Origin: Octopus vulgaris
Lineage: Eukaryota
DNA length: 64,000 nucleotides
NCBI GenBank assembly: GCA_951406725.2
Contig: OX597814.1
Coordinates: forward strand, 1,116,001-1,180,000
Direction: 5' to 3'
The number at the start of each line of letters is the position of its first letter. The first letter of the stretch is position 1. The notes under the pieces are model-generated. The model was given only the letters and a program-made list of their open reading frames with translations, searched no databases and was not told the origin of the DNA. The position numbers were made by a program, and so were the translations under genes. Shown in pieces: positions 9,127 to 63,831 of the stretch.

Positions 9127-9826
9127 TTAACGCTTTCGTTAGTGTATTTATTTTGAGATGCTCTGCGTTTCTTTCAATTAATTTTAAATATGACAAAGAA
9201 TTTAGTAAAACAACTTAGTTATCATTCAGCTAGTGTCAGGAACTTAAATTGTGACTAAGATTTGGTGGAAGATTTTTATTCAAAACTTATGAAAACAAGA
9301 CATTTGTACTACAGAGCCAGAGGTGGTTTCAGCTGGGTTGGTATCAAAAGGGTTAAATATATCATGGTGACTTTAACCCTTTTGTTACCATATTTCTATT
9401 GAGATGCTTTGTGTTTCTTTCAATCAATTTTAAATATAACAAAGAAATTAGTAAAATAAGTTCATTATCATTAAGCTAGTGTTAGGAACATAAATTGTGA
9501 CTAAAGTTTAGAGGAAGATTTTAATTCAAAACTTATGAAAACAAGACATTTGTACTACAGAACCAGAGGCGGTTTCAGCCTGGTTTGTATGAAAAGGGTT
9601 AAATTAGTTCTTTGTTAACTCTTTTGTTACGATATTTCTCTTGAGATGCTCTGTGTTTCTTTCAATTGATTTTAAATATAAACAAAGAATTTAGTAAAAC
9701 AACTTAGTCATCATTCAGCTGGTGTTAGGAACTTAAATTGTGACTAAGGTCTGGTGGAAGATTTTTATTCAAAACTTATGAAAACAAGGCATTTGTACTA
9801 CAGAGCGAGAGACAGTTTCAGCCGGG
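9127..9826. mobile_element. Three adjacent piggyBac-like MITEs (about 230 bp each, TTAA|CCC...GGG|TTAA)
   Basis: Units at about 9127-9356, 9373-9602 and 9616-9826 share sequence. Termini are ttaacccttt...aaagggttaa; the third unit lacks its right end. Confidence 0.8.
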
Positions 9827-9885
9827 TCAGTTGATTACATCAATTCTCAATACACAGCTGGTACTTATTTTACCGAACCCGAAAG

Positions 9886-22854: not shown

Positions 22855-24142
22855 CGAGGGGCGTTCAATAAATAATGCCCCTGACCCACTTCCCATAGCA
22901 GTAGAGCAACGAAACTTGGCACAGTTAGTCTTTTTCTACATAGGAACCACCCAGAGTTACGCATTTCTCCCATCGTTTGATGCAGCTCTGAAGACCGTTT
23001 TTGTAGAAGACCCCAGCTTGGTCCTCCAACCACGAAGTGACGTCAGAAATCAAGGCTGCATCATCTGGGAAACGTTTTCCTTTCAAAAACAACTTCATGA
23101 CTGGGAAGAGGTGAAAATCAGAGGGTGCAAGGTCAAGAGAGTAGGGGCATGGGGGAGGAGTTCATAGCCGCACGCCTGTGCTTCTGATCTGGCGACCATC
23201 GAGTTGTGGACCGGAGCGTTGTCCTGCAGGAGGAGGATGCCTTTGCTGATCTTGCCCTGCCTCTTGATTTTGATAGCTTCTCTTAATTTCATCAAAAGTG
23301 AAGCATAATAAGCTCCTGTAATTGTGGTACCCTTTGCCAGGAAATCTGTCATCACTACTCCGTCCTGGTCCCAGAAGACTATGAGCATGACCTTGCTAGT
23401 GGAGGGCTGCACCCTTGCCTTCTTTGGAGGAGGTGAGTCACGGTGCTTCCACTGCATTGACTGGGCTTTGGTCTCTGGATCATAGTGATGGACCCAGGTT
23501 TCATCCTGTGTAATCAGTCTTTTGAAAAATGTTGACTCATCTTCTTGGCACATCTCCAAATTCATCCTCGAGCACTCGACGCATTCTTGCTTCTGGAAAG
23601 GTGTGAGCAACCTGGGAATCCATCTGGCAGACACCTTTTGCATATGCAAATAGTCATGAATGATTGGTTTCCACAGACCCGGTACTAATCTTGACCTCAT
23701 GGGCTATTTGCCGAATAGTTATGCGTCGATCTTCCAAAATGGCAGCCTCAACTTGATGGACAGATGCCTCATCAATAGCAGTAGGGGGCGACCAGATCTG
23801 GGAGCTGTTTCCACAGAGTTCCGACCATGTTTGAATTCACAATGCCAGCGTTTTACAAGGTCATATGATGGGGCATCATCACCATAAGTTACTTTCATTT
23901 CATCAAAAGTCTCCCGTGGTGTGCGTCCTTTCAAATATAAAAAGCGGATCACTGCCCGACACTCAACAGGCTCCATTTCACACTTGACTCAGTTCAAACA
24001 CCTGTAAATCAGAAACCACAATTAGTTCAGAGCTGTAATTTACCACTTAATCTATAGAGATATAGATAATTGCACATGCAAAATTTCAGCTAGATCAAAC
24101 AACTGCAAGTGGGTCAGAGGCATTACTTATTGAACACCCCTC

Positions 24143-28070: not shown

Positions 28071-30652
28071 GTATTGAGAATTTATCATCAACACTCAAGA
28101 AATCTTTGCAGAACTTTGTCCCAACCAACAACAAGAAGCGGCAGCAAGTCTTCCCCAGTTGCCGCAAAGAACATCTCTTAGCAATAAGTCGGAAGCAGCT
28201 TCTGAATGAATACATGTCACTGGAAAGTAGCCGGGAGTTGCACAAAGCCATGAAACCAGCTCCTGTTATGGACCGCAGTACATCTGACTCGGAGGTTCAG
28301 GAACTCTCCGAGAGCAACCAGCCACCGACCAAGTGGAAACTAGATAAAAAACGCAAATATAAATTTGGTGAATCTCAGTTTCTGTCTTGGCAGAACCGTT
28401 ACCAAACGCTGAGTGAAGAAAATCTAAAAGGTATTCAACGTAGTAAAATCCAGGAGGTCTTCCATCCAGCCGAAACCTGTTTGCTTATGATTGATATCAT
28501 CCAGAACGTGTGTTTGCTGGACTTAAACCAAACGGTGCCCTCAAAGTTAGTGTCAGTCTCTTTGCTGCCTGAGTTGTTAGATGCTCTTTTTCGTTTCCAT
28601 GACATGTTCCAAAATCCAAATCCACAAGTATGGACCAAGGACATTCTAGCTTATATCCTAAAACACCTTTTGCAGTTGGTGTTCATGCTAAGCAATATAA
28701 CTGCTACACAACAAAATGGTTCCAGTATTTTGATCCGGAATCGGATATTCCCCAGTTTACTTTATTTAGCTCATGATCTTTTAGAAGATATTACCTACCC
28801 TGAGAACATAGTCTGGTCTGAAGTATCGGACCAGTGCCACGTTAAAATGGTATTGGTGTCCGACATCATATCAGGATTACTGCTCTGTGCTACTGAAGTC
28901 TTTCACAATATTCCACTGAATCCTGTTTTTATAAACTCAGCTTTAAAAGTTATGTGGATATTTAGAGAAGAACGAGGTTTTAGTATGTTGGAATTGATCC
29001 TTTCTTGGCTTGACTCTGAATGTTTCCCACATAAAGTTTGTAAAAAATTCTCCCCCAAAGACAATCTTTTAAAGTCAGTCAGCAGTCTTGTAATAGCCAT
29101 GAAGAAAGCCAAAGTTGGTTACATTCATTCTTCCACCTGTATGAAGAAGAAACACAGAAAATGTATTTATACTCATTGTTTTGATCATCACCATAATATT
29201 CTTGGCTTTGCTTTCACCAAAAATGTCAGCCGACAGAAACTGGATGTTTCTTCAGATATTTGTGTTGTTGGTTATTGGTCACAATTCTTACTTGATGTTT
29301 TACCGTTTCTCAAATCTAAGCAACAACAACTTCAAGTCTTCACCCTGTTTGTAACAGCTGGCATTTGTTGTTGTATCGGGATAGAGGTTATGCTGTCCAG
29401 CTTCCATTCGTCTTTCTATAATCTGTCTCCAGCTGTAAAGAACTATGCCTTAGACATCATGAACAATATGCTGCTGGAACAGTTGTCTGGTGCCAGACAC
29501 ATAGCACAGAAACCAAGTAAAATCGAAATTTGTAAGGTGTGTGAGGATGATTCCTTTGATACTTTTAGTGGTAAATTAAAACGTGGAATGGACCCAGACT
29601 GCAAAGTGAATCCAGAAGCACACGACAGTGGTGTGTCAAGTAGCGAAATATCATCAGAAGATTTCAAGTCTTCTATGAAGAAAGATTTGCTCAAGCGATG
29701 GGGATCCCTGGCCAAAATGTGTGATATCTTATATTCTGGGGACACAGTATCTGCTTCGTTACTCTCCAAACATTTGTTGATCTTAGCTGTCCATGGCAGA
29801 ACAGAAGTTAAACAAGAACTATTCCATTCCATTTATTTACCAATTCTTACAGACTACTGCAAGTGGAAATCCACAACACAACATATCATACCATCACCAC
29901 TCAGTAAATCTGTCATCATGAACTGTCTGTCTGCCTTTCCGTATCTCCTGCAAGCAGAGTCTGTCATGCCAACTTTCTTGGCTCGACATGGCATTGAAAA
30001 ATTATGGACGATTCTTGAGGACCCGTCTTTACAGGAACTTGTCTTGCATGTGTTCGAAGCTTTGATAATTGCTGACGAATATGTGTCATTAGAGAATATA
30101 TTAAAAGAGAACAAAGTATCGGAGAGGCTGATGGACGAGAACAGTCCTGTGTCCGACTTCTCCAGTGACGATGATCTGACCTACTGCAGTAACATGGTCA
30201 TTCGGTCGTTTTTGAAGATCTTATCTGAAAATATCAAATTACATGGTGTCTCTATTAACATACTTCCAAAGAACTTTCTAAAAGACTCTGAAATGAATGA
30301 TGGAGAAGAGGTGAACCAATTATCAGATTCTTCCATGCATCTAAAATGGTTCCTACTTTTAAGAAATCTATGGAGAACGTGTCAAGTTCTTTTGCTCAAT
30401 AGTCCCAGCTTTCTTCTCCAATTCAAAACCTCCGAATGTTTCATGCTTGCCAAACAGATTCTCTTCCACATCATACCGCAACTTGGGACTTACGCCAGTC
30501 CAACTCACCAATTCATGGAACCGGGTGTTTATAACAGCAATATCGGTGACCAACCCCTACAATCTGTACCAATCTTCCAACAAGCTCTCAGTCTTCTCGA
30601 GTCTGTACTTATGGCCTGTATCATCTGCTACATGCCAGCATTTGCAGCCAAG
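28071..30652 (+). CDS. LYST: LYST large exon (2582 bp, phase 1 to 0)
   Basis: Covers most of ORF 28106-30697. Acceptor tttctcacag|GT and donor AAG|gtaaca. Contains the Cys/His motif and GICCC motif of LYST. Confidence 0.95.
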
Positions 30653-40137: not shown

Positions 40138-40430
40138 GTAAGTATCAAGTCAATTTTTATCAGCAGGGCGATGAAGAATCTCGTTGATGGTTATTCAGTC
40201 TCCTAGAAATAGCTGTCAAATCTTCTTTGATTCATGCTCTGACAGCTTCAGATATAAAGGGAGAACACATTACATAATGCACTTATTGTTTGTAAGCCTA
40301 ATACTTATTCTATCAGTCTCTTTTGCCAAACTGCTAAGTTACAGGGATGTAAACACACCAACATTGGTTGTCAAGTGATAGTGGAGGGGACAAACACAGA
40401 CACACAGACATATGTATATATTTATATGAC

Positions 40431-49789: not shown

Positions 49790-50476
49790 CCCTTTCGTTA
49801 CCAACCCAGCTGAAACCGGCAATGGTTCTGAGTACAAATGTCCTGTTTTCATAAGTTTTGAATTAAAATCTTCCACCAAACCTAAGTCACAATTTGTGTT
49901 CCTAACACCAGCTTAATGATAACTAAGTTATTTTACTAAATTCTTTGTTATATCTAAAATAATTGAGAGAAACACAGAGCATTTCAACAGACAAAAGGAT
50001 TAATAAATGATTAATTTAACCCTTTCGTTACCAGCCCGGCTAAAACCAGCTCTGGCTCTATAGCACAGATGTCTTGTTTTCATAAATTTTCAATTATGAA
50101 ACCTTAGTCACAATTTATGTTCCTAACTCTAACTTAATGATAACTGAGTTATTTTACTAAATTCTTTGTTATATTTAAAATTAATTGAAAGAAATACAGA
50201 ACATCTCAACAGAAATATGGTGACAAAAAAGTTAACAAATGATTAATTTAACCCTTTCGATACCAACCTGGCTAAAACCACCTCTGGCTCTGAGTACAAA
50301 TGTCTTGTCTTCAAAAGTTCTCAATTAAAATCTTCCACCAAACCTTTGTCACAATTTATGTTCCTGACACTAGCTTAATGATAACTAAGTTATTTTACTA
50401 AATTCTTTGTTATATTTAAAATTAATTGAAAGAAACACACAGCATCTCAACAGAAATATGGTAATAGAAGGGTTAA
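49790..50476. mobile_element. Three adjacent piggyBac-like MITEs of the same family, opposite orientation
   Basis: Units at about 49790-50003, 50016-50235 and 50248-50476; reverse complement of the 9.1-9.8 kb units. Confidence 0.8.
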
Positions 50477-52675
50477 GGTACCAGAAGGTGGATGTAAGAG
50501 AGAATATAGTGGATAGGTTTAAGACAGTGTGAGAGAAAAGTGACAGACAGTTGGAGATGGAGATAGAGGTGAATGCAGTGAATGGTGAACTGGGGTGGAA
50601 ATATGGTCAATGGTGAATCGCCAGTTGGGTTGGGTGAGGCATAAAAGAAAACATGAGTGAGGGAGGATGAGGTGATTGTAACAATTCACAAAATGGATGG
50701 GGAGGAGAAAGCAACAGTGTAATAAAACTGGAGATAAATAAGAAATAAGATGACATGAAGTGTTGGCTAGAGAGAAGATGCAGAGTGATAGAGATGGAGA
50801 TGAGAGCCATGTAGGGGTGGATGTAGTGATCAACAACAAAAACAAAATAGGGTAGAGGTGGTGGCTGTGAATGGTAGATATAAGAATGTATTCAGAGGAA
50901 AAGGGGAATTTACTGGAAAAAAAAGTGCTGAGGGATGACACCAAAACAGTGGCGGAATATGTGCAGTTCTGCTCTCGTTAGTCTTTTAGTCAGCATGAAT
51001 CCCTTATTCCATTTTCTTCCACTTCTCATATTCTTCGGAAAGGTATGAATGTCACAACATCTCAGTGAGTGCAGGCATAGCCATGGTGTTAAGAAGTTCA
51101 CTTTTAAATGAAGTTGTTCTATGTTCAACCCATCTCTGCTGTACCTTGGGCAAGTTCTTCTACTTCAGCCTTGGGTTAATCAAAGCTTTTTAGCTTTCTC
51201 AGTGAGACTGGGCTAACAGAAACTACGCAGGAGTCCCTCAGCTGGACTACACTTGTTTTAGTGTGGTAGACTTCATCTCTCGTCTGGTTTTGCACCACCA
51301 CCTTTGAGTGTCATTTGACTGCAGCCATGCTGGAACACCACCTTTGGTCAAACAAATCGACCCCAGCACTGATTCTTTGTAAGCCTAGTACTTATTCTAT
51401 CGGTCTCTTTTGCCAAACCGCTAAGTTACTGGGAGGTAAACACACCATCATCAGTTGTTAAGCAATGGTGGGAAGACAAACACAGACACACAAATACATA
51501 CATACAATGGGCTTCTTTCAGTATCTGTCTACCAAATCCACTCACAAGGCTTTGGTTGGCCTGAGGCTGTAGTAGAAGACACTTGCCCCTAAAGTGCCAC
51601 GCAGTGGGACTGAACCCGGAACCATGTGGTTGGGAAGTAAGCTTTTCACCACACAGCCACTCCTGTGTGTGTATATCATGATGGCATCACTACGACTCTT
51701 GAGGTCCCAAACAAAGAATGTAAAGAATTGGAAATGCAGTTAAGCATTTCATCCAAAGCAGTAATGGTTCTGCCATCTTTCTGCATTTAATAGTTTCAAA
51801 TTTTTGCGCAAGGCCTACAATTTTAGGGAAGGAATTAATTGATTACAGCATTTTGTCTGGTATGCTGATGCTTTTGCTTGCTTACTGCCTTAATCATCAT
51901 CATCATCATCATCATTGTCGTTTAACATCTGCTTTCTATGCTGGTATGGGTTGGATATTTTGACTGAGAGTTGGTAGGCCAGGAGGCTGCACCAGGCTCC
52001 AATCTGATCTGGCAAGGTTTCTACAGCTGGATGCCCTTCCTAATGCCAACCACTCAGAGAGTATAGCGGGTGCTTTTTACGTGCTACTGGCACAGGAGCC
52101 AGTCAGGTGGGACTGGCATCAACAAGGCTCGAATGGTGCTTTTTATGTGCCACCAGCACGGGTGCCAGTCAGGTGCCACTGGCATTGACCATGACCATGA
52201 TTTCACTCAGTTCAACAGGTCTTAGCAACATTAAACAACAACAACAATAATGGATTCAAGTTTAGACACAAGGCCATCAATTTCCCGGGAGTGAGGGTTG
52301 TCTGTGGCATTGGCCCCAGTTTTAACTTGTACTTATTTTGTTGACCCTGAGAGAATGAAAGGCAAAAATCAACCTCAGCAGAATTTGAGCTCAGAGTGCC
52401 CCCAGATTAGCTCCTGTGCTGGAGGCATGTATAAAGTATCCACTACACTCTCGGAGTGGTTGGCATGAGGAAGGGCATCCAGCTGTAGAAACATTGGCAG
52501 ATCAGATTGGAGCCTGGTGCAGCCTTTTGGCCTCCCAGTCCTCAGTCAGACTGTCCAACCCATGCCAGCATGGAAAGCAGATGTTAAACAATGATGATGA
52601 TGACTATAAAAATAGATGAAATGCCACTAAGCATTTTGCCTGGCATACGTACGACTCTGCCAGATTCACACCTTA

Positions 52676-53074: not shown

Positions 53075-53243
53075 GATTTACTGCTGTCCACCCTAACAGG
53101 GATTGTTGAAAACTATAGAGTGTCACCAACTCATTATGTCCAGTTCCCGGTAACGAGACAGGATTCAAGCAACTCTAATTACAACGGCAGCAGCAGCATC
53201 AACAGCAGCAGCAAACACAAGATGGAGTCTGGCTGTGATAATG
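53075..53243 (+). CDS. LYST: LYST exon (169 bp, phase 0 to 1): DLLLSTLTGIVENYRVSPTHYVQFP...GCDN
   Basis: Acceptor ctctgtcag and donor ATG|gtattt; a phase-1 end is needed for exon 55706. A possible alternative donor CCG|gtaacg lies at 53149. Confidence 0.82.
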
Positions 53244-54685
53244 GTATTTTATCTCTCCTTTTTTTTCATTTTTTCATTATTTATTTTGTTAATTTATTTT
53301 TGTCTTCTTCACTTTTCCTCACAACAATATTTCAAGAAATCATGAAGGCAATATTTAGGTGGCATTTTCTCCAGTGTGAAAGCAATTGGCCTGGTGGTTA
53401 GGGTGTTGCACTCCTGATTGCTAGACCATGGGTTCAATCCCTGGACCGGATGGTGCATTGTGTTCTTGAGCAAAACCCTTCATGTCACATTGCTCCAGTC
53501 CATTCAGCTGTGAATGGATAACCACCCTGCGATGGAAAACTCTTCTAATCATGGGGAATGTTGGCCACCCCACCTAGCCAGTGGAGTGGCGTCATTCAAG
53601 AGCTAAAACAGTGTGAAGCACATTGTGCCCATACATGTGTCGGTCATTGCCTGTGCTGCCTGACTGGCTCCCCGTGCTAGTGGCATGTAAAAAGCACGAT
53701 CTGAACGTGGTCGATACCAGCTTGACTGGCTCCCGTGCCAGTGGTACATAAAAAATACCACCAAACATGGTCAGTACCTGACCCCCTCACCTAGACTGGC
53801 TCCTGTTGCCAGTGGAATGTAAAAAGCACCATCCAAACGTGACTGATGCTAGCTTGACTGGCTCCCATGCCACTAGCACGTAAAAAGCATCATCTGAATA
53901 TGGTCAATGCCATCCCCCTTGCCCTGTCTGTCTCCTGTGCCAGTAGCATGTAAAAAGCACCCACTACACTCTCGGAGTGGTTGGCGTTAGGAAGGGCATC
54001 CAGCAGTAGAAACACTGCCAGATCAGACTGGAACCTGGTGCAGCCTCCTGGCTTGCCAGTCCCCAGTCAAACCGTCCAACCCATGCCAGCATAGAAAACG
54101 GACGTTAAACGACGATGATGTATAACAACATCATAATAGTATGGCCAATACCATAACTTTCTCCAGTAATAGTTGTTGTAATGTTTCCCAATAGGGTATG
54201 TAGCTTGGAGATGAAGGATGCTCTCCCAGTTGAGCTGCTATTTTTCTGCATTGAAAGGTCACAACTCTGGTACTGCGGACATGGGAGTAGAATGCCATAG
54301 GGAAGAATTGCAAGACAAATTCTTCAAGCTGACCGAACCAGTTGAAAACCTAGGGGTAGACCAAGAACGCAGTGGTTGGACAATGTCCGCAGTCTGAGTT
54401 GCTTGGGAATCTGCTACGAAAATGCAATGACTTGCTTTGGTTAGAATCCTATGCAGGAGGGACCTGAAGACTCTACCCCTTCTCAGAACCCTCCACTAGA
54501 GTAAAATAGTAATAAAGGGGCTCCTTAGATAGAAAAATGGTTGAGAATCATTGATCTGTGGAGTTCATCTGTCTGCTAGAAATAGTAGCCAAATCTTCCT
54601 CAAATCGAATAGCACCTTACTGCTTTAAACAATGTTGGATAAATTGCATGATGTAGTCCAAGATATATTAAATCTTAAAAAAAAA

Positions 54686-55716
54686 ATGAGATGGTCATGG
54701 TTGGACTACTCTCCCTCTTAAGTCAGCTGGATCAGCACAGACCCTATCTCACCCCCTGCCCACACCTTGTTACCATTGTTCACCCTACAATTCTTTTCCA
54801 GATGTTCACCAAAGATGAGATGGTCATGGTTGGACTACTCTCCCTCTTAAGTCAGCTGGATCAGCACAGACCCTATCTCATCCCCTGCCCACACCTTGTT
54901 ACCATTGTTCACCCTACAATTCTTTTCCAGATGTTCACCAAAGATGAGAGGGTCGTGGTTGGACTACTCTCCCTCTTAAGTCAGCTGGATCAGCACAGAC
55001 CCTATCTCATCCCCTGCCCACACCTTGTTACCATTGTTCACCCTGCAATTCTTTTCCAGATGTTCACCAAAGATGAGAGGGTCGTGGTTGGACTACTCTC
55101 CCTCTTAAGTCAGCTGGATCAGCACAGACCCTATCTCATCCCCTGCCCACACCTTGTTACCATTGTTCACCCTGCAATTCTTTTCCAGATGTTCACCAAA
55201 GATGAGAGGGTCGTGGTTGGACTACTCTCCCTCTTAAGTCAGCTGGATCAGCACAGACCCTATCTCATCCCCTGCCCACACCTTGTTACCATTGTTCACC
55301 CTGCAATTCTTTTCCAGATGTTCACCAAAGATGAGAGGGTCGTGGTTGGACTACTCTCCCTCTTAAGTCAGCTGGATCAGCACAGACCCTATCTCATCCC
55401 CTGCCCACACCTTGTTACCATTGTTCACCCTGCAATTCTTTTCCAGATGTTCACCAAAGATGAGAGGGTCGTGGTTGGACTACTCTCCCTCTTAAGTCAG
55501 CTGGATCAGCACAGACCCTATCTCATCCCCTGCCCACACCTTGTTACCATTGTTCACCCTGCAATTCTTTTCCAGATGTTCACCAAAGATGAGAGGGTCG
55601 TGGTTGGACTACTCTCCCTCTTAAGTCAGCTGGATCAGCACAGACCCTATCTCATCCCCTGCCCACACCTTGTTAACCATTGTTCACCCTACAATTCTTT
55701 TCCAGATGTCCACCCT
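54686..55716 (+). repeat. 129-bp tandem array (about 8 units) duplicating the LYST 3' splice acceptor
   Basis: Near-identical units. AG acceptors end at 54801, 54930, 55059, 55188, 55317, 55446, 55575 and 55705. The array gives a 43-aa repeat in ORF 54691-56175. Confidence 0.97.
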
Positions 55717-55909
55717 GGCAGCAGTCCAAAGGTGATCAGTCTAGCACCAGTCACAATGCAAGTGTCCAATCTATTACCGTGGCCACCCTACCAGAATGGC
55801 TTCAGTGTGTCACTATGGTTACAGCTTGGCGACGAGGTTCTACCTGACCAATGGATTCCAGGAACCAGATCGAAGGAGAAGATGATGCAGGATTCGACGG
55901 ACATGTTTG
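55706..55909 (+). CDS. LYST: LYST exon (204 bp, phase 1 to 1): DVHPGSSPK...WPPYQNGFSVSLWLQL...DMF
   Basis: Last acceptor of the 129-bp array (ttcttttccag) and donor G|gtgagt. WPP..GFSVSLW marks the start of the ConA-like domain of BEACH proteins. Confidence 0.88.
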
Positions 55910-56341
55910 GTGAGTCAATAGAGCAACCTCATTCTCTTCTTCTGGTTTATCATCATTGTCATCATCACCATCATCGTCATCATAGTCATCATCATCACTG
56001 TCACTCTTTTCAGTTCTCTCCAAGAAAGGTTTTGCATTTCTGTTCGGTGGCACGTTCAAAGCACCAACCGATCGTGGCCGATGCCAGACTCCCCTGGCAC
56101 CTGTGCCGGTGGCACGTAAAAAGCACCCACTACACTCGTGGAGTGGTTGGCATTAGGAAGGGCATCCAGCTGTAGAAACACTGCCAGATCAGACTGGAGC
56201 CTGGTGCAGCCTTCTGGCTTCCCAGACCCCGGTCGAACCGTCCAACCCATGCTAGCATGGAAAACGGACGTTAAACGATGATGATGAATTTTCTTACATT
56301 TTACCAAAATTCAATTTCCAAATGTTTTCTTAATTCTTCAG

Positions 56342-56507
56342 ACAATGGTGACCACCACAAGACCTGGTTGAGGTCGAATCTATCTCATCAGACCCCTGAT
56401 GCAGCTTCTTACATTAGCAACGAATGTCTACACATTTTCTCTGTAGGCACAGAAGAAAAGATGTTTGAGATATGGGCTGACCCCTGCATTGGAACCCTTG
56501 TTGTCAG
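56342..56507 (+). CDS. LYST: LYST exon (166 bp, phase 1 to 2): DNGDHH...CLHIFSVGTEEKMFEIWADPCIGTLVV
   Basis: Acceptor aattcttcag and donor CAG|gtttgt; contains the WADP motif. Confidence 0.88.
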
Positions 56508-56609
56508 GTTTGTTTCTCACTTTCTGTTGTTTTTTTTCAGTTACTAAGTCTGGTTATTCATGATGCCTTCAATATAATGCCAGCATCATCATCGTTTTTG
56601 TTAGCCTTG

Positions 56610-56877
56610 GGCCTCATGGAGGCAAAGTGGCTGAGTTCCTTTCGAGTGTTGAGCCTCATGGAGGCAAAGTGGCTGAGTTCCTTTCGAGTGTTGAGCCTCA
56701 TGGAGGCAAAGTGCCTGAGTTCCTTTTGAGTGTTGAGCCTCATGGAGGCAAAGTGGCTGAGTTCCTTTTGAGTGTTGAGCCTCATGGAGGCAAAGTGCCT
56801 GAGTTCCTTTCGAGTGTTGGGCCTCACGGAAGCAAAGTGGCTGAGTTTCTTTCGAGTGTTGAGCCTCACGGAGGCAA
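56610..56877 (+). repeat. 42-bp minisatellite (about 6.5 units)
   Basis: Unit gttgagcctcatggaggcaaagtggctgagttcctttcgagt. Confidence 0.9.
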
Positions 56878-63147: not shown

Positions 63148-63831
63148 GTAATTAGCTTAATGGGTTTTAATTAATTTGTTAATTAGTTCTTCTGGTGAAA
63201 GTGGTGCTTATTTAACCCTTGGTTAGGCCTCAATGAGCAGGCTTTGATCAGATACATTCCAGCAGTGACCATCATGTCCTTTGGATCAGACATTGTTTAT
63301 CTGGTACCAAGATATCTAATGTAACCTCCCTCTCATTAAGATGATAGAAAGTGATATAAAGGAAATTTGACTGCCATTTCTAGCAGGTTGGGTGGTTGCA
63401 TAATCTTGTGGGTTTTTTAGCCCCTGGTTAGCCTTTTATGACCGCCACAAGATCCAGTCCTTGTTGTGATATGATGACTGGCATGCTTCAGTGACCTAGA
63501 GAGCCATGCTATGGGAGTGCAGGTCTCTGGTAGGGGTCGCCCATGCTGGACAAGTCAAAGATTAGGGGCCAGACCAATATGGACCACATCTTCTGAGAGT
63601 TTTTGTATAGAGCCAATATCCCCTACCTAGACAATTCAAAGGCAGCAAGGCCTGGTAGATGAGGGGCTTCTCTAAGTGGGAGGCGAGGGTTCTGGGGCAG
63701 AACCGGAAAAGGCTGGATTCAGCTGGAAAGAAGCAGAAAAGATAGCTTAGAGTTGAAGACAGTGGAGAAAGTTGTTGATGGATTATGCTCCACAGGGATC
63801 GAAGGGCTTAAGTACCCCCTTTCAGAAGACC

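Follow-up and report, generated by a model that had tools for sequence, protein, structure and literature searches.

Tandem repeats that span an intron-exon boundary have been described in amphioxus under the name of mirages. In BflGb6, an intron's 3' end and the 5' portion of an exon are copied in tandem, with 6 and 3 units on the two haplotypes and homogenised middle units, and regular splicing is unaffected according to the available portion of the report (PMC3087553). The same portion reports somatic length instability for the Adh3 mirage, and Adh3, troponin C and PGBD5 appear as further amphioxus mirages in the accessible text of PMC3902484. Human minisatellites provide a second point of comparison, as those of F7, 6-16, CBS, LAMIN B2 and PDGF likewise repeat an authentic splice site, here on the donor side; in the 37-bp polymorphic VNTR of F7 intron 7 the copies are functional but silent and the exon-adjacent site wins, as the accessible part of PMC1557585 describes it. 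With regard to the choice between competing sites, human data in the available text of PMC9225289 indicate that long flanking introns favour the sites nearest across the exon, with shorter exons preferred, while at 3' sites with long flanking introns the upstream preference is reduced and not abolished.

Here we analyse 64,000 nucleotides of Octopus vulgaris DNA (contig OX597814.1, positions 1,116,001 to 1,180,000; hereafter the window), in which eight tandem copies of a 3' splice site stand ahead of an exon of LYST. Duplicated acceptors have also been engineered in beta-globin, in experiments ascribed to Kuhne 1983 and to Reed and Maniatis 1986, where an acceptor followed by a short exon piece reportedly loses to the copy with the full exon. 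Those duplicates comprised two copies with short introns, studied in vitro or after transfection, whereas the octopus has eight natural copies in a long intron.

Results and discussion

A mirage in octopus LYST

The 15 LYST exons of the window were placed by an exact spliced match to a LYST-like Octopus vulgaris protein of 3,561 residues (P0001), to which exon 28071-30652 is 100% identical. The PH-BEACH, BEACH and WD40 domains at its C-terminus (Pfam PF14844, PF02138 and PF00400) all score above the cut-off, and this arrangement, together with a length of ~3,500 residues and LYST as its best named matches, identifies the protein as LYST of the BEACH family. The P0001 identity, the domains and the spliced protein match thus uphold both the gene identity and the local anatomy given in a preliminary description of the locus made from the DNA letters alone.

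The array occupies a 2,462-nt intron on the forward strand. Upstream lies a 169-nt exon (53075-53243, +), which matches P0001 exactly, ends in a phase-1 donor at 53243, and is joined at its end to 55705/6 in the RNA-type sequencing run X9. Downstream lies a 204-nt exon (55706-55909, +), which begins with DVHPGSSPK, has a GTGAGT donor at its end, and is covered by the P0001 match and the X9 contig. A 432-nt intron separates it from the next exon, of 166 nt (56342-56507, +), also matched by P0001, whose first 30 nt form the downstream loose end of the X9 contig. ESGCDN-DVHPGSSPK stands at the junction in the protein models of O. vulgaris, O. sinensis and O. bimaculoides alike. Exon length is at most 276 nt in 14 of the 15 window exons, the exception being the internal coding exon 28071-30652 (+) of 2,582 nt, which is preceded by a 17-kb intron. 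Exon 55706-55909 also contains a variant at 55882, where the window and X9 have A (Met) and the runs X2, X5 and X17 have G; O. sinensis and O. bimaculoides have Val in their proteins.

Tandem Repeats Finder places the array at 54682-55714 (+), with a period of 129, 8.0 copies, 99% matches and a score of 1987, and its eight units are also supported by unit alignment and by junction-bridging contigs in X2, X5 and X9. Each unit consists of the intron's final 120 nt and the exon's initial 9 nt. The preliminary description had reported eight tandem 129-bp copies of the LYST 3' splice site, with acceptor Gs at 54801, 54930, 55059, 55188, 55317, 55446, 55575 and 55705; copies and positions are confirmed, and all eight acceptors are CAG. 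Its details need some amendment: the array begins at 54682, 4 nt ahead of the 54686 first given; units 1-7 have the length of 129 bp, but unit 8 has 130 nt, with one additional A at 55675/55676; and the ~9 exonic bases are indeed copied, but the seven upstream copies (hereafter decoys) match only 8 of the 9, with T for C at +5.

Numbering positions within the unit, unit 1 (54682-54810, +; AG ending at 54801) is of the flank type, with A4, T11, A16, C71 and A106, and unit 2 (54811-54939, +; AG ending at 54930) has G4, T11, A16, T71 and A106. Units 3-7 (54940-55584, +) are identical, with G4, G11, G16, T71 and G106 and AGs ending at 55059, 55188, 55317, 55446 and 55575. None of these seven has the extra A. 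Unit 8, whose intronic part (55585-55705, +) carries the acceptor in use according to the X9 contig and the spliced protein match, differs from units 3-7 by the extra A at 55675/6, by A106 and by the true exonic C at +5. Because the middle units are identical and the end units 1, 2 and 8 divergent, the array most plausibly goes back to one duplication, later extended by unequal exchange or slippage. Its left breakpoint, at an A-run (~54676-54686), lies within a decayed interspersed-repeat-like sequence (54560-54750, +) that aligns loosely to 63200-63400 (-) and 40185-40380 (+) of the window, with a mean column identity of 68%. A pre-existing DNA hairpin is a weak candidate for the trigger of the first duplication, as the folding of the flank-type unit does not surpass that of shuffled sequences (z of -0.81 and 0.38 as DNA, -0.33 as RNA).

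The array belongs to the class of mirages, as these are characterised in the available portion of PMC3087553. It is a minisatellite-like tandem repeat of 8 x 129 bp lying over an intron-exon boundary, its splice signals are kept, with polypyrimidine tract and CAG in 7/7 decoys, its interior units 3-7 are homogenised between divergent boundary units, and the authentic boundary is the one used in regular mRNA, as represented by the main contig of one RNA-type run with NMD active. Within what that portion covers, BflGb6 shares the similar unit size (150-160 bp, against 129 in the octopus), the kept AG, the homogenised middle and divergent boundary units, and the undisturbed regular splicing. The octopus array differs in coming from a mollusc, in copying only 9 exonic bases, and in keeping the CAG in all seven decoys; it also has a branch motif that only the real copy carries and a stem predicted between units, neither of which is mentioned for BflGb6 in the accessible text of PMC3087553. 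The octopus thus extends to a cephalopod a class described in amphioxus, and as a mirage its array is ordinary. No mollusc mirage was found among the literature matches listed, in a search that leaves out most subscription papers.

Unit number in four sequencing runs

Of 24 sequencing runs listed, four were compared over 55545-55945, all as contigs: X2, X5 and X17, which are DNA from organisms A, B and E, respectively, and X9, whose RNA status is a guess, though its contig joins three exons. Contig depth is not copy number, and we treat depth ratios as hints and bridging contigs as evidence. The head-to-tail junction between units is bridged by contigs in three of the four runs, two of O. vulgaris and one of a relative. 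X2 has a 159-nt contig (129+30) across this junction, lacking the extra A, at a depth of 130 compared with 20.7 for its exon contig, which hints at many units, and its main unit differs from that of the window at position 106. In X5 the depths are 48 for the flank, 29 for the junction, 80 for the middle and 64 for the exon, a pattern that would be consistent with an allele of one unit beside an allele of two, if depth may be taken as a hint in this way; its 109-nt middle contig carries the extra A with no gap. In X17, from another species, a single 511-nt contig, lacking the extra A, leads from the 5' flank across one unit and on into the exon. A metagenome scan for further outgroups gave no matches.

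These contigs show that the duplication is real and common to a close relative, that the more distant species of X17 has one unit, and that unit number differs between species; it probably differs between alleles as well. They also largely refute the notion that a single unit was expanded by the assembler or by read stutter, which we now regard as extremely unlikely. The identity of units 3-7 is what such an error would leave, and the exact count of eight is an assembly figure, but the four unit types occur in order, the bridging contigs of X2, X5 and X9 come from three separate studies, and the main unit of X2 is distinct from the window's at position 106.

The acceptor used in the mRNA

Record 9 of X9 is a spliced contig of 8,726 nt, at a depth of 20.9 and with 0 mismatches over 55705-55909, that joins donor 53243 to 55706 and continues to exon 56342, unbroken at both junctions. 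The preliminary description had offered, as one of two outcomes, that the spliceosome bypasses the upstream copies, and in the assembled mRNA of X9 this is what happens. X9 also has a 159-nt junction-bridging contig of a decoy-type unit, without the extra A, at a depth of 8.5 and with 0 other letters; taken with the A at 55882, it suggests that the X9 animal carries the window's array. This unit contig most simply represents low-level unspliced RNA or DNA, summed over the copies, although unspliced RNA, DNA carry-over and decoy-spliced RNA are indistinguishable in it. The contigs of X9 include no decoy-spliced form and none over 55691-55704, a segment obligatory in any decoy-spliced mRNA; this negative pertains to one RNA-type run as contigs, from which rare forms are dropped, with NMD active.

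The protein sequence agrees with this choice of acceptor. From donor 53243 each of the seven decoys gives D-V-H-Q-R-stop, the stop being the sixth codon, and the last acceptor alone gives DVHPGSSPK, both exactly as had been read from the genomic sequence.

Splice-site strength and probable exon definition

The splice matrices used here rest on 14-15 sites. Scored with a matrix of the other 14 LYST acceptors, acceptor 55705 reaches 1.0 bit, the lowest of the 15; the other 14 range from 1.6 to 17.9 in leave-one-out scoring. Tract and CAG of the decoys score 1.0-1.4 bits in the same matrix versus 1.0 for the real acceptor. The decoys had been called equally strong, which is right for tract and CAG, but not for the branch region and the downstream context. 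As the single-unit outgroup X17 has a decoy-type branch region before its exon, the decoys are probably competent in themselves. On the downstream side, no GT in units 3-8 exceeds 0.4 bits, versus 6.0 (leave-one-out) for donor 55909, and the exon would measure 204 nt from the real acceptor and 334-1,108 nt from the decoys.

We suggest that the boundary amplification in LYST is a mirage whose seven extra acceptors are skipped, quite probably through cross-exon definition, which would favour the nearest acceptor. The exon would be recognised across its body from the downstream donor 55909; the last acceptor would give a 204-nt exon, while a decoy would come with neither a good donor nor an exon body. 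Such recognition likely needs donor 55909, because the acceptor is weak and the flanking introns measure 2,462 and 432 nt. The extra A, which improves the branch motif in the last copy only, and a stem between neighbouring units are predicted helpers, and any leak through a decoy would carry an early stop, and NMD would probably remove it without much effect. We infer that cross-exon definition is the main cause of the acceptor choice. It accords with the proximity rule in the available text of PMC9225289, where long flanking introns likewise favour the nearest site across the exon, though those data are human and the minigene test concerned 5' sites, whereas the octopus case concerns 3' sites. 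Since the upstream preference at 3' sites is merely reduced in that text, exon definition alone may not give exclusive use of the last acceptor. Two further points weigh against it: LYST does splice an exon of 2,582 nt, so long exons are possible, and extra copies are used in two of the five human donor-side minisatellites, 6-16 and CBS, where, unlike in the octopus array, nearby copies are used as well according to the accessible part of PMC1557585. In F7 and the other human minisatellites the winner, on the donor side, is transcribed first, whereas the winning octopus acceptor is transcribed last, and first-come scanning from 5' to 3' therefore cannot explain the choice.

The locus is in effect a natural experiment, in which transcription passes seven near-identical acceptors, all ignored, before it reaches the real one, and a relative with one unit serves as the control; the array would let exon definition, branch-point strength and RNA structure be told apart.

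Decoys acting as separate poison exons were also considered and are ruled out by the lack of a good donor in units 3-8. A weak donor-like GT of 3.6 bits, lower than which three of the 15 real donors score (leave-one-out), follows decoy 1 only and could define a 21-nt stop-containing micro-exon at 54802-54822; the G11/G16 changes reduce the corresponding GT to -2.9 bits after the other six decoys. A further GT, at 55731, lies 26 nt into the real exon and equals the real donor with 8.3 bits in the small donor matrix; it is unused in the X9 contig.

Branch-point motif and predicted stem

The branch-point consensus is YTRAY. The extra A at 55675/6 creates the only such motif in the zone from -18 to -44, within a branch-point-like 7-mer (55671-55677, +) with a predicted branch A at 55676 (-30), which is found in the real copy alone and in 0/7 decoys. 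In U2-pairing score this motif shares first place among the 15 acceptors; YTRAY is present at 6 of the other 14 LYST acceptors and at 526 of the 2,492 AGs in introns, and would be created in a decoy by 11 of 792 single changes. The decoys retain a second motif at -20. The extra A occurs in unit 8 and in the middle contig of X5, and is absent from all decoys and from X17. As the outgroup lacks it, the shortest history is a gain, which either postdates the duplication or arose on the allele from which the last copy came, and the X17 acceptor further indicates that the extra A is dispensable when no competitor is present. The converse idea, that the decoys lost a branch A, is reversed by the single unit of X17.

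Each unit also has an imperfect inverted repeat with arms at ~4-18 and 54-72, and the second arm of one unit is predicted to pair with the first arm of the next. Such pairing would enclose the branch region, tract and AG of each decoy, whereas the real site has no downstream arm. In one predicted example (55122-55215, +), the pyrimidine arm of unit 4 (~55122-55140) pairs with the purine arm of unit 5 (~55201-55215) around the decoy at 55188, though the same arms can alternatively pair within one unit. The changes A4G, T11G and A16G take the predicted duplex from -14.1 to -21.6 kcal/mol and are three of the four most stabilising among 126 possible arm substitutions. With base-pair spans of 150-200, the expected number of enclosing pairs is 11.5-14.6 for the decoys and 0.3-0.9 for the real site; with spans of 70-90 the within-unit hairpin is predicted to win, both folds standing at -24.1. 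The stem has a z of -2.05 (7 of 200 shuffles). Its significance is post hoc, with p about 0.002-0.05. This range comes from stricter nulls that replaced a naive one of 1e-4, and in them the observed value is reached by 17 of the 364 triples of changes to G, by 177 of 6,000 clustered triples of this kind, and by 13 of 8,000 and 28 of 6,000 triples of any change; for the two later changes, taken by themselves on a G4 background, 7 of 78 pairs reach it.

Two further structural ideas were discarded. Masking of the decoy tracts by local structure is ruled out by an accessibility of tract and CAG that is equal or higher in the decoys, and templating of the three G changes by a single-tract quasi-palindrome fails on inspection, since a copy of the other arm would bring in the bulged bases too.

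Alternative readings

Exon definition might be insufficient, in which case selection would have silenced the decoys by means of the branch A and the three stem-tightening changes. We consider this rather unlikely, although it is compatible with an explanation by cross-exon definition. In the equally doubtful structural form considered here, each decoy would lie within the loop of a stem closed by the next unit, and the real acceptor would stay free. The restriction of the extra A to unit 8 and the X5 middle contig, where it makes the sole YTRAY in the zone, would fit such a history, as would the rank of the G changes among the four most stabilising of 126 and the predicted enclosure of decoys, with the real site nearly free, at spans of 150-200; T11 and A16 in a related copy of the repeat point to the G states as derived. 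All of this is post hoc, however, and is weakened by the stricter nulls, including the 7/78 pairs on the G4 background, and by a z of only -2.05. The within-unit hairpin is equal in energy and, in the course of transcription, would be the first to form, tract and CAG are at least as exposed in the decoys as in the real copy, the outgroup acceptor does without the extra A, the decoys keep the motif at -20, and the polarity rests on one outgroup. The stem pairs are moreover Watson-Crick, so that a DNA hairpin favouring expansion explains them equally well. We therefore take the branch-A and stem asymmetries as leads and not as results. If this reading were true, the array would silence itself at any copy number, which would explain more generally how boundary repeats come to be tolerated and to grow; if the branch-point gain and the stem were necessary, splicing would have been protected against its own repeat by compensatory evolution, in a rare instance that can be dated.

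The preliminary description had proposed that unit number acts as a dial on LYST dosage, with a sizeable share of transcripts sent through decoys to NMD, rising with unit number and tuning LYST level and pigment-granule size. This proposal, which would bear on pigment biology in cephalopods, is at present unsupported and seems to us quite improbable. In keeping with AS-NMD, 7/7 decoys lead to an early stop that is followed by many introns; the tract and CAG scores resemble those of the real site, unit number varies, array sequence occurs in the RNA-type run, and NMD would hide decoy transcripts. But X9 has no decoy junction and no cover of 55691-55704, its mRNA contig being unbroken at the junction, and the arrangement is not conserved across related species, X17 having a single unit between flank and exon. 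In humans, LYST disease is recessive according to the accessible portions of PMC12117754 and PMC5286514, so a small leak would probably do little, and the mirages described in the available text of PMC3087553 and PMC3902484 are silent. No paper on LYST in cephalopods was among the literature matches listed. Still less probable is an in-frame extension, in which an AAG 13 nt past each decoy CAG would be used and LYST would gain 39 + 43k residues in a variable linker. A stop-free frame of 498 codons (54679-56175, +) does run through the array into the exon's true frame, with which the extra A makes it continuous; no AG of the array other than these AAGs is both in frame and stop-free, and bivalve LYSTs are longer at the same place. 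The AAG scores -10.9 bits, however, with a CAG ahead of it, 50% of 20,000 shuffled units have an open frame, none of 36 proteins contains any of five array-derived peptides, and the form is not seen in X9. The open frame was rejected as a coding signal, being at chance level by shuffles, and we read its Pfam matches (five families, three above the whole-protein cut-off) as artefacts of summed repeats, no stretch passing alone.

Other features of the window

Within a LYST intron, a 202-aa frame at 23095-23703 (-) resembles, by its motifs, what we take to be a fragment of a mariner-type DDE transposase. A second minisatellite, of 42 bp x 6.5 with 94% matches, lies at 56607-56877, 100 nt 3' of donor 56507; its frames are open on both strands, and the splice site is outside the repeat. 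Arrays of an AT-rich element of ~246 bp occur at 9127-9827, as found by Tandem Repeats Finder, and at 49800-50480, as recognised by eye.
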